DNA from: a virus
Taxonomy: Duplodnaviria > Heunggongvirae > Uroviricota > Caudoviricetes
Strand: one strand, 5' to 3'
Length of the DNA stretch: 28,052 nt
IMG/VR virus record: IMGVR_UViG_2534682331_000010
Every line of letters begins with the position of its first letter. The stretch's first letter is position 1. Position numbers: made by a program. Of the stretch, positions 24,001 through 27,000 are shown piece after piece.

Positions 24001-27000
24001 TTGAAATAGAGGTTTGTCAGGTACGTCAGCAGGCCAAATACCAGGCTACCCAGCACACCTATTGCTGCCCACTGTGAGGGCGTGACTTTATCGAGCAGCT
24101 GTAAAAACCAGTAACCGGCACTACCTGCTGAGGTGCCATAGGCGACACCCGTTGTTAACTTATCCATGGATTTCATAACCCCACCTCGCAGACAAAGCGG
24201 GTGTAAATTGAGGGAATACAACGTATCGCAAAAAAGCAGAAACGTAACAGACTCGGAGTCAGTGAATAACTCAGGTATTGAGTTATCAGCTAATATCGAG
24301 ACTCAAAAAATGGAAAAACCAGCTCGACGGCGGGTTTAAGCTGTGTGACGAAGTAACCACTCTTAACAGCATAACCAATTTTTTACGTACGTAAACCACT
24401 GAATGATATTTATGAGAATGCTACCGAGTGTTCAAAACTCCACCACAAATACATAAGAAAACCTCAACAAATAACCAATAAATAATTTCAGACGTTATTT
24501 TTAGTTGATTTAAATTAAACTGTCGAATTATAGAACCCCCATAAATAACAGCCATTAATATAAATTAGCTAACAGGTTTATTTTTGTTCAAATAAGAGCC
24601 ATAAATAGGTTTCGATAGAAAAAGTTCAGATAAAAATAGAGATCTACTTCACAAATTAAATGAGAAACTAAAACTTACATCTTGAAATAATCACATTGAT
24701 TAGATGAATATTTATCGCGCAGTGACATCATTTTTTAATAATAGTTCAAAAAAAAGGGCTCACGATGAAAAAATTAACAGTGGCAATTTCTGCTGTAGCT
24801 GCATCAGTACTGATGGCGATGTCTGCTCAGGCAGCTGAAATTTATAATAAAGACAGTAACAAGCTGGATCTGTACGGGAAAGTTAATGCTAAGCACTACT
24901 TCTCCTCTAATGATGCAGATGATGGTGATACTACTTATGCCCGTCTTGGCTTCAAAGGTGAAACCCAAATCAACGATCAACTGACTGGTTTCGGTCAGTG
25001 GGAATATGAATTCAAAGGCAACCGCGCTGAATCTCAAGGTTCCTCCAAAGACAAAACCCGTCTTGCATTTGCAGGCCTGAAATTCGGTGACTACGGCTCA
25101 ATCGATTACGGCCGTAACTACGGTGTAGCATACGACATCGGTGCGTGGACTGACGTTCTGCCAGAATTCGGTGGCGATACCTGGACCCAAACAGATGTAT
25201 TCATGACTGGTCGCACCACAGGTGTTGCAACTTATCGTAACAACGACTTCTTTGGTCTGGTTGATGGCCTGAACTTTGCAGCTCAGTATCAGGGCAAAAA
25301 TGACCGAAATGAAGTAACTGAAGCTAATGGCGATGGTTTCGGTTTCTCAACTACTTATGAGTATGAAGGATTCGGCGTGGGTGCAACCTATGCTAAATCT
25401 GATCGCACTAATAATCAGGTTATCTACGGTAACAACGGTCTGAATGCTTCTGGTCAAAATGCTGAAGTATGGGCAGCTGGTCTGAAATATGATGCGAACA
25501 ACATCTATCTGGCCACCACCTATTCTGAAACCCAGAACATGACTGTTTTTGGTAATAACCATATTGCCAACAAAGCACAAAACTTCGAAGCTGTTGCACA
25601 ATATCAGTTCGACTTCGGCCTGCGTCCATCCGTTGCTTACCTGCATTCTAAAGGAAAAGACTTGGGTGTTTGGGGTGATCAGGACCTGGTTGAATATGTT
25701 GATGTAGGTGCAACCTATTACTTCAACAAAAATATGTCCACTTTTGTTGACTACAAAATCAACCTGATTGATAAGAGCGATTTCACGAAAGCATCTGGCG
25801 TTGCTACCGATGATATCGTTGCTGTAGGTATGGTTTACCAGTTCTAATTTGATTACTAAAAGATATGTTGTGGGAGGCTTTGCCTCCCCAACATATAAGT
25901 GGCTCCCTCAAGCCACTTCCTTTAGAAGCACAACCTTGCTTCTAACTATACAAACCTTCTGTTATATATTACCCTTTATTTTTGGGGGCGTTTCAACGCC
26001 CCATTTTTAATAACTTTTAGTAAATAATTGGCGTATTAATTAGAGTTATTAACAACGATATCCATCTCTAACCGGATATCTAATGCCATTAACATCCCTT
26101 CAATTATGCCCTCAGCCTTTTGTAACCTTTTCCCGATATAACCATCAGAGCAGCAATGCTTCCCTGCCAGTGACATGAATGTCATACCGACTACATAATA
26201 ATCTACTAATAAATCGTGCAAATCGCTGTTGTTCTTTTTCAGACGGGCCATGCACCCGCAAATGATCATCGCGTCATCGTCACAACATTGCGGGCGAGAT
26301 TTTACTTTTGAAGGAATTAATCCCTTAAAACCGGCGGCAATGGACGACCAGGTCACATCTTCATGATTATTAGCCGCCCACGCTCCCCAACGCTCAAGAA
26401 CCATCTGAATATCACGCATCAACTTACTCCACAAAAACTCAGACCAGAACGCCAATTACAAGCAAAAATCAACAAAACAGTATTAGTTGATTGTTATCTC
26501 TGACTTCATACTCCTGCTCCTGTCAGTGTTTTGGCGTAATTCTTCAGTATTCGGTAATCGGTCAAAACAGAACCGGGGAAACGATATAAGCGCAGACGCC
26601 CCCAGCGGTGGCGAAGAAGTTCTGCCATATTAAACTCAAACATCATTCATTCCCCATTTCGGTGATGGTCAGTTCCAGCCTCCCACCTTTGGTAACAGGC
26701 ATCTTCACAACGCGGTAATCAACGACCTGAGCATCATCCAGCCAGAAACCTGCTTTAGTGAGTGCGTCAAAAGCGGCTTTTTGCAGATTATCCAGGTCAC
26801 GGCGACGGCGATCCGGCATGTGGCACTCAATGCGGATTTTCACAGGCATAGCCAGGCCGATATCCAGCATTGCGTTTTTAATGATTCGGGCGACGTTATC
26901 GCGGTATGCCTGCCCCTCTGCGCTGACGTGCGTGCGCCCGCGATTATGGCGGTAATAGCGATTATTGCTCGGAGGCCAGGGTAATGTGATGCTGTAGGTA

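Follow-up and report, generated by a model that had tools for sequence, protein, structure and literature searches.

IpeX, an RNA of the prophage DLP12 in E. coli K-12 and of phage PA-2 (Castillo-Keller, Vuong and Misra 2006, as cited), is described as 167 nt long in DLP12, made within the lc/nmpC porin transcript and processed from a longer precursor. It represses ompC and ompF; as it lowers host OmpC and OmpF, a lysogen trades the host porins for the phage porin. Here we examine the same kind of locus in a stretch of viral DNA of 28,052 nucleotides (Caudoviricetes; IMG/VR record IMGVR_UViG_2534682331_000010), called the window throughout. Our subject is the spacer between the stop codons of two convergent genes, for a porin and for the antiterminator Q, in which the original prediction had noticed four consecutive hairpins. 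The spacer, first given as a convergent gap of about 190 bp, measures 188 bp (25848-26035). The porin 3' untranslated region within it shares with IpeX the locus, the neighbours (porin and QuuD) and the length (about 161-167 nt).

The porin-Q spacer is the ipeX locus

The spacer of the window is about 96% identical to that between nmpC and quuD in DLP12 of K-12; over the 325 aligned columns of the K-12 alignment that includes it, mean column identity is 95%. The sequence downstream of lc in PA-2 equals the K-12 spacer, being identical across the aligned untranslated region (UTR). Window and K-12 also have the same layout, between the nmpC/lc stop and a Rho-independent terminator, adjoining quuD. 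The gap sequence is the ipeX locus, and its four-hairpin element is already known. Compared with the known IpeX, the window carries a few substitutions in the bulge and loop of the first hairpin, the loop of the last and the spacer; its porin gene is intact, whereas nmpC of K-12 is broken by IS5. The features of the locus are as follows.

24765..25847, plus strand: porin gene (NmpC/Lc type, 360 aa), an open reading frame; Pfam Porin_1, E 3.6e-152.
25848..26008, plus strand: porin 3' UTR, the IpeX-equivalent RNA, from stop codon to terminator U-run.
25863-25896, plus strand: hairpin H1; 8-bp outer stem, 1-nt bulge, 7-bp inner stem, loop UUU (3 nt); -22 kcal/mol.
25897-25918, plus strand: hairpin H2; 8 bp, loop CCCTCA (CCCUCA in RNA).
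25922-25945, plus strand: hairpin H3; 9 bp, loop CAACCU.
25953..25981, plus strand: conserved unpaired stretch that separates H3 from H4, predicted to be an antisense seed.
25985-26008, plus strand: hairpin H4 (25985-26002) and U-run, the intrinsic terminator of the porin/IpeX transcript.
26036..26419, minus strand: antiterminator Q (QuuD type, Q21/933W family, 127 aa); Pfam PF06530, E 8.5e-54.

All four hairpins are present close to where they had first been placed, with some change of limits. The 25872-25888 originally given for H1 corresponds to its inner stem, GGGAGGC/GCCTCCC, which is enclosed by an outer stem, ATATGTTG/CAACATAT; H3 had been given as 25924-25943. H4 has a stem of 7-8 bp with six G-C pairs and a loop of 4 nt, followed by ATTTTT at 26003-26008. 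It is therefore a G+C-rich stem-loop directly before a U-run on the plus strand, and the sole terminator-like site that a consensus terminator scan finds within the gap. Read on the minus strand, the same stem is followed by CAAAAAUAAA, an A-run, without a U-run. Folded as plus-strand RNA, the stretch of 165 nt reaches -58.5 kcal/mol, against -29.3 +/- 3.6 kcal/mol for 200 dinucleotide shuffles of it (z = -8.2; none of the 200 as good). Because these energies lie far below those of the shuffles, the hairpins are far beyond chance; the minus strand folds to -66.1 kcal/mol (z = -7.5), and folding energy by itself gives no indication of the strand in use.

The hairpins are assigned to the porin strand on four independent lines, one of which is the minus-strand A-run after H4. 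Another comes from the K-12 orthologue, in which the Term-seq 3' ends 574367/574366(-) (Adams et al. 2021, supplementary file 1) correspond to window position 26008, the end of the U-run. Porin-strand transcription in K-12 thus ends at the terminator, and the earlier view that the last hairpin, with its clean T-run, terminates the porin transcript is confirmed by both the scan and this end. A second strong 3' end, 574476(-), corresponds to 25899, only 3 nt past H1 and without a U-run. This end probably marks a site where the transcript is processed or an exonuclease stops, parting a porin mRNA ending in H1 from a fragment made of H2, H3, the single-stranded stretch and H4. From 572350 to 584632, no Q-strand 3' end is listed in the same data. 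Adams et al. also report a region of Rho-dependent termination at 574331(-), antisense within quuD at about window position 26044 (score 9.7); porin-strand read-through past H4 therefore appears to be stopped by Rho.

The remaining two lines come from sequence variation. In the P1-like phages P7 and phi456 the nmpC cassette stands beside ssb, with no Q gene nearby. Their BLAST homology to the window covers 24702-25977 at 75% identity, and their porin 3' UTR has the same four-hairpin fold. The outer stem of H1, AUAUGUUG/CAACAUAU in the window, becomes AUAUGCGGG/CCCGCAUAU in P7 with the hairpin kept. In H2 of P7 two pairs have changed in a compensatory way (A-U to G-C, U-A to A-U) around an identical loop; H3 and H4 differ in sequence with their pairing kept, and several pairs of H1, H2 and H3 are compensatory. 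The 30 distinct lambdoid variants have their substitutions in loops, spacers or the bulge of H1, and the sole frequent stem change is an A-to-G in H3. On the plus strand this allele makes a G.U pair (-9.1 vs -9.6 kcal/mol), and on the minus strand an A.C mismatch (-5.2 vs -9.7 kcal/mol): the change is tolerated on the plus strand only. H1-H3 are conserved RNA stem-loops of the porin cassette, not of Q. With high probability, then, the four hairpins are the structured 3' UTR and terminator of the prophage porin mRNA on the plus strand, that is, the known IpeX of DLP12/PA-2.

The hairpins might also form a barrier in both directions, with H4 stopping porin transcripts and minus-strand H1, a 15-bp stem followed by CUUUUAG, weakly stopping or pausing early-operon read-through from Q ahead of its antisense passage into the porin gene. 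The genes are convergent, on the minus strand the fold is no less stable than on the plus strand, a run of four U lies past minus-strand H1, and the Rho-dependent region within quuD of K-12 tells that transcription through the gap is dealt with in one direction at least. We consider such a barrier improbable, since the scan calls no minus-strand terminator in the gap, K-12 lists no Q-strand 3' end (though its cryptic early operon is probably silent) and N-modified polymerase would ignore such a site in the lytic cycle.

The spacer is widespread: about 2500 of 5426 complete E. coli genomes and 36 phage records contain it, in every case between the porin and QuuD, and all 80 IMG/VR loci that have this Q carry it. 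A scan of 24000-26600 against Rfam at E <= 1 returned no family, IpeX being without an Rfam model, and in the annotation tables examined for spacer-bearing records the spacer has no feature of its own. It should be labelled in annotation as IpeX, or porin 3' UTR, plus terminator.

The porin cassette is hit repeatedly by IS5-family elements. In both K-12 (3592-4786 of the stretch examined) and the 434B hybrid, IS5 follows codon 346 of nmpC. In E. coli strain JB2 (2375-3549 of the stretch examined), most of the porin gene, along with the UTR as far as about window position 25972, has been lost to an ISKpn26-type element. The half-gap of JB2, which retains the terminator half only, was considered as a natural module boundary and rejected, as it results from IS5-family insertion or deletion.

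A predicted antisense seed between H3 and H4

The stretch 25953-25981 is unpaired in the centroid fold, near-invariant in the 30 distinct variants and conserved in P7. Its reverse complement is CAAAAATAAAGGGTAATATATAACAGAAGGTTTG; the K-12 ompC leader reads GCAAATAAAGGCATATAACAGAGGGTTAATAACATG. Two blocks are predicted to pair: 25953-25967 with ompC -21..-7 (15 bp with one G.U pair, covering the Shine-Dalgarno sequence GAGGG) and 25973-25981 with ompC -31..-23 (9 bp). Duplexes were computed for the seed only, with shuffle and background controls, and were complemented by cofolds of full-length RNAs. The predicted duplex of seed and ompC has -26.4 kcal/mol, a value reached by none of 500 dinucleotide shuffles and by none of 2602 natural 90-nt segments of phage or E. 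coli DNA; MicC pairs with ompC at an overlapping site with -26.5 kcal/mol. In the cofold of full-length IpeX with the ompC leader, H1-H4 are kept and the duplex forms. The gain in free energy upon cofolding (ddG) is -21.0 kcal/mol with ompC, -17.6 with ompF and -7.7 with the phage porin's own leader. The stretch is thus accessible and, by prediction, complementary beyond chance to the initiation region of ompC, as is characteristic of an antisense small RNA (sRNA).

The P7 allele differs in its best partner, which is ompF (-34.2 kcal/mol, reached by none of 500 shuffles). A 12-mer, UUAUUUAUUACC, is common to the P7 seed and MicF, a similarity reached by 12 of 2000 shuffles. For the lambdoid seed, the similarity to MicC and to MicF is not significant (170/2000 and 236/2000 shuffles, respectively). 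We give an even chance to the following reading: IpeX is a phage-borne mimic of MicC and MicF, in which an inverted copy of a porin leader pairs with the ribosome-binding site (RBS) of ompF and, over 15 + 9 bp, with the Shine-Dalgarno region of ompC, with alleles tuned by lineage (ompC in lambdoids, ompF in P7/phi456), the whole unit moving as a cassette that in lambdoids was put between Q and the late promoter.

The steps of such a mechanism can be outlined. H4 and its U-run end the porin transcript, a step demonstrated in the K-12 orthologue. Cleavage between H1 and H2 would then leave the porin mRNA under the protection of H1 and release a fragment about 110 nt long (H2, H3, spacer and H4); the cut is proposed because the second abundant 3' end of K-12 lies just past H1, and it fits the longer precursor of the literature. 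Repression would fall to the single-stranded stretch between H3 and H4. By prediction it is antisense to positions -31 to -7 of the ompC leader, where it overlaps the MicC site, and less perfectly antisense to the ompF RBS, the MicF site. Seed pairing would block ribosome binding on the host porin mRNAs, while the flanking hairpins and the terminator U-tail may provide stability and, for ompF, a handle for Hfq. The phage porin would escape because its own leader lacks the target. At roughly even odds, the tail of the phage porin mRNA acts in this model as an antisense porin-leader copy that blocks translation of host porins, which fits the reported phenotypes.

Several points weigh against this account of the locus, from the hairpins to the seed. 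Reviews state that IpeX does not base-pair with ompC or ompF and that the ompC effect is not explained by complementarity, in contrast to the 15 + 9 bp predicted here with the ompC leader. The match to ompF, across GAGGGUAAUAAAUAAUG with one mismatch, has -18.8 kcal/mol, which is reached by 29 of 500 shuffles and 23 of 2602 background segments (top 1%), and the seed is AU-rich. The evidence of transcription comes from the K-12 orthologue. Covariation support comes mainly from P7/phi456, because the lambdoid copies vary little.

IpeX may work without any base pairing, which is the view of the literature: its stable hairpins might titrate Hfq, an RNase or some other RNA-binding factor, or influence the stability of the porin mRNA in cis, the ompC complementarity being an AU-rich by-product or a trace of descent from an inverted porin leader. 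The statements of the reviews favour this alternative. The ompC effect is also reportedly independent of Hfq. The conserved structure of H1-H3, with the invariant H2 loop CCCUCA, suggests a function beyond the seed, and the strong 3' end past H1 points to mRNA processing or stability. Even so, we regard it as rather unlikely: with ompC, the predicted duplex is as strong as that of the proven regulator MicC and extends over the Shine-Dalgarno sequence, and none of the 2602 background segments matches it; no other unpaired part of the UTR is as conserved as the seed; and the P7 allele is retuned to ompF through a MicF-like 12-mer.

If IpeX does act by antisense pairing, its sites would overlap those of MicC (ompC -33..-16) and MicF (the ompF RBS). 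The likeness to MicC extends to the duplex energy (-26.4 vs -26.5 kcal/mol) and to the sequence, in that GUUAUAU...CCUUUAUU of IpeX corresponds to the seed of MicC with a short insert dividing it. Unlike in MicC and MicF, the IpeX seed does not form the 5' end of an independent sRNA: it lies internally in a 3' UTR, after three hairpins, and is borne by a phage and linked to a replacement porin. In its origin IpeX resembles sRNAs that processing releases from 3' UTRs, such as MalH from malG, with which it shares being the tail of an mRNA, the use of the mRNA's terminator and a 5' end probably made by cleavage, in keeping with the K-12 3' end between H1 and H2. It differs from them in that parent gene and targets are paralogues; as both are porins, the RNA would enforce the replacement of host porins by the phage porin. 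The MicC/MicF-like seed is a new prediction of this work. Were the seed mechanism true, it would show how a phage makes its own porin replace that of the host.

The H2 loop CCCUCA (25905-25910) is invariant in lambdoid and P1-like cassettes, even where its stem has changed. Its complement, UGAGGG, is the Shine-Dalgarno sequence of ompF (ompC has GAGGG), and the loop could be a second anti-Shine-Dalgarno contact.

A late-promoter homologue upstream of holin

The Q of the window is of the type that Yin et al. call the Q21/933W family, whose late promoters pR' are described next to Q. In phage 21, the annotated -35 element of pR' begins 6 nt past the Q stop, the Q-binding element (QBE) lies between -35 and -10 and a terminator follows directly. 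In Stx phages the pR' start, placed by differential RNA sequencing (dRNA-seq), lies 258 nt upstream of the tR' 3' end; in the Stx2 II sequence this mapped start falls 7 nt past TATCAT and about 22 nt past the Q stop. A 933W-like phage has pR' annotated at the Q stop, as TTTACG, 16 nt and TATCAT followed by a small terminator, in agreement with the dRNA-seq start.

The original prediction had expected a corresponding arrangement on the minus strand of the gap, though it placed no promoter hexamers with confidence: the late promoter pR', a Q-utilisation site and a 6S-like region. On this view a short 6S-like transcript would be terminated there, and H1-H3 would pause or terminate Q-modified RNA polymerase. 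Such a layout would place pR' as in lambda, phage 21 and 933W, whose start lies a few to a few tens of bp from the Q stop. By eye, a weak candidate can be traced: TTGAAA (25996-25991), a 19-nt spacer and TAATAT (25971-25966), with a further -10-like TATAGT (25950-25945); minus-strand H1 is then followed by CUUUUAG. A consensus scan, however, passes no promoter-like site on either strand of the gap. The spacer of the by-eye candidate is overlong, its -35 lies in the variable terminator loop (TTGAGA, TTGCAA, TTGAAG and TCGAGA in other copies), and the arrangement is absent from P7.

The hairpins do not behave as parts of Q control either. They travel with the porin into P1-like phages that have no adjacent Q, and the H3 polymorphism breaks the minus-strand hairpin. 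Against a 6S-like region stand the lack of a minus-strand terminator in the gap and of Q-strand Term-seq ends in K-12. The gap shows none of what marks lambdoid late control: a sigma-70 promoter, homology to a mapped pR' or a short Q-strand transcript. In phage 21, which had been suggested for comparison, pR' is at the Q stop; in the window the homologue of 933W pR' lies beyond the porin gene, at 24314-24395. A late promoter in the gap is not supported because the pR' homologue, kept in all QuuD/porin loci where its core was found, is upstream of holin with the cassette intervening; we hold the minus-strand reading to be highly improbable. A late region like that of phage 82 (a pause at +25, with TTGAAA, TAATAT and TATAGT) was also considered and was dropped, given that Q belongs to the Q21/933W family and the pR' homologue is elsewhere.

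The two features concerned are listed below.

24314..24395, minus strand: displaced late-promoter element, a homologue of 933W pR', between porin and holin, about 1.6 kb from the gap.
About 24397 to 26059-26086, no strand assigned: porin cassette (moron), inserted between the Q frame and the promoter relative to 933W-type phages.

The homologue is of the 933W type, with a -35 element TTTACG (24395-24390), a 16-nt spacer and a -10 element TATGCT (24373-24368). After the -10 come an invariant core, TGTTAAGAGTGGTTACTTCG, and then AAACCCGCCGTCGAGC(T/G)GGTTTTT. The core has a single copy in the window, at 24368 on the minus strand. By BLAST, 24314-24395 matches Stx phages at their annotated pR' and terminator; the pR' alignment took in 933W-like, SfII, Stx2a_WGPS2 and K-12 sequences. 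The core was found in K-12, ev243 and IMG/VR copies, and the promoter is present in every examined QuuD/porin locus where the core was found. Judged by this homology, the late promoter of the phage is outside the gap, at 24314-24395 on the minus strand, and the late transcript would start near 24361, about 185 nt before the holin ATG.

Compared with the late regions of phage 21 and 933W (pR', QBE, sigma-dependent pause element and tR', with lambda 6S RNA and StxS as their short transcripts), the window thus has a Q of the same family and a homologue of pR' with its first terminator. It differs in that the homologue lies outside the gap, the stem of the terminator is broken by a G-to-T change and K-12 Term-seq lists no short Q-strand RNA.

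The small terminator past the displaced promoter lies at 24335-24314 on the minus strand. A T at 24321, in its 3' arm, makes GCTGG of GCGGG and breaks the stem; with this allele the hairpin, of -12.0 kcal/mol, is lost and an alternative fold has -6.7 kcal/mol. The T allele is carried by about half of the IMG/VR copies, and the stem is intact in K-12, ev243, SfII and 933W-like phages. From the promoter to holin, no other canonical terminator was found. Since the terminator is broken and no other canonical one precedes holin, late-gene expression in this phage may depend less on Q.

Further records were searched for a late promoter or its start. The supplement tables of K-12 Cappable-seq and SMRT-Cappable-seq that we examined have no entries near about 574416(+) or 577213(+), and the 434B record has no pR' annotated in the corresponding region. 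In the PA-2 record J02580 two CRP sites are annotated upstream of lc, at 1067-1087 and 1363-1383. This region corresponds to the stretch between holin and porin, and the CRP sites would be near the displaced late promoter. In prophages of the QuuD type the late promoter should be annotated upstream of holin and not beside Q.

The Q-promoter junction and the neighbouring genes

Q and the promoter homologue are separated by a porin cassette of 1.7 kb on the reverse strand. Homology to a 933W-like phage is confined to 26087-26421 (Q) and 24314-24396 (pR'), and Q of the window diverges from its counterparts in 933W and ev087 directly after RLEMD, at about window position 26060. Homology at Q and pR' only, together with this divergence, indicates that the cassette was inserted between the Q frame and the promoter, replacing the last codons of Q. 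A late promoter parted from Q by reverse-strand cargo, in a very common type of prophage, is the other new point of this work.

The same layout occurs in the stretches examined of Shigella phage SfII (514-2714) and of Stx2a_WGPS2 (421-2477). There, two reverse-strand genes of unassigned function (about 1.6 kb) lie past a short Q, ahead of the core TGTTAAGAGTGGTTACTTCG and a terminator. These phages are unrelated, with a Q that is only 47-52% identical. The recurrence of the layout in SfII and an Stx2a phage suggests that the Q-promoter junction is a preferred slot for reverse-strand cargo.

Phage ev087 was considered as a guide to the late promoter, as its Q is 89% identical, and was found uninformative for the gap: homology stops at the RLEMD codon (26060), and what lies downstream in ev087 has no relation to the window. 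In ev087, no copy of the conserved pR' core turned up within 3 kb. At 3378-3535 of ev087, the region past Q closes with a terminator similar to tR' of Stx phages (GCCAGCCTCCCCAAAGGCTGG, then T8), and a reverse-strand lipocalin (Blc) gene comes next.

The last 6 kb of the window, on its minus strand, are the late-control region of a lambdoid prophage, to which the following genes also belong or adjoin.

26643-27005, minus strand: RusA, in the late-control region, 5' of Q.
Between RusA and Q, minus strand: YlcG-like open reading frame.
23961-24176, minus strand: holin, past the porin gene, followed by the lysozyme and Rz genes.

The porin of the window is 90% identical to Lc of PA-2 and 100% identical to the porin of phage ev243. 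Its Q matches the solved Q21 structures 6P18/6JNX at E 7.6e-8 and is 79-82% identical to Q of Stx phages over residues 1-126. In the last codons of Q, at 26057-26080 on the minus strand, a terminator-like site was flagged, GATATCCGGTTAGAGATGGATATC followed by GTTGTTAATA. With only three G-C pairs and a poor U-run, and lying within coding sequence where the modules join, the site probably matches by chance.

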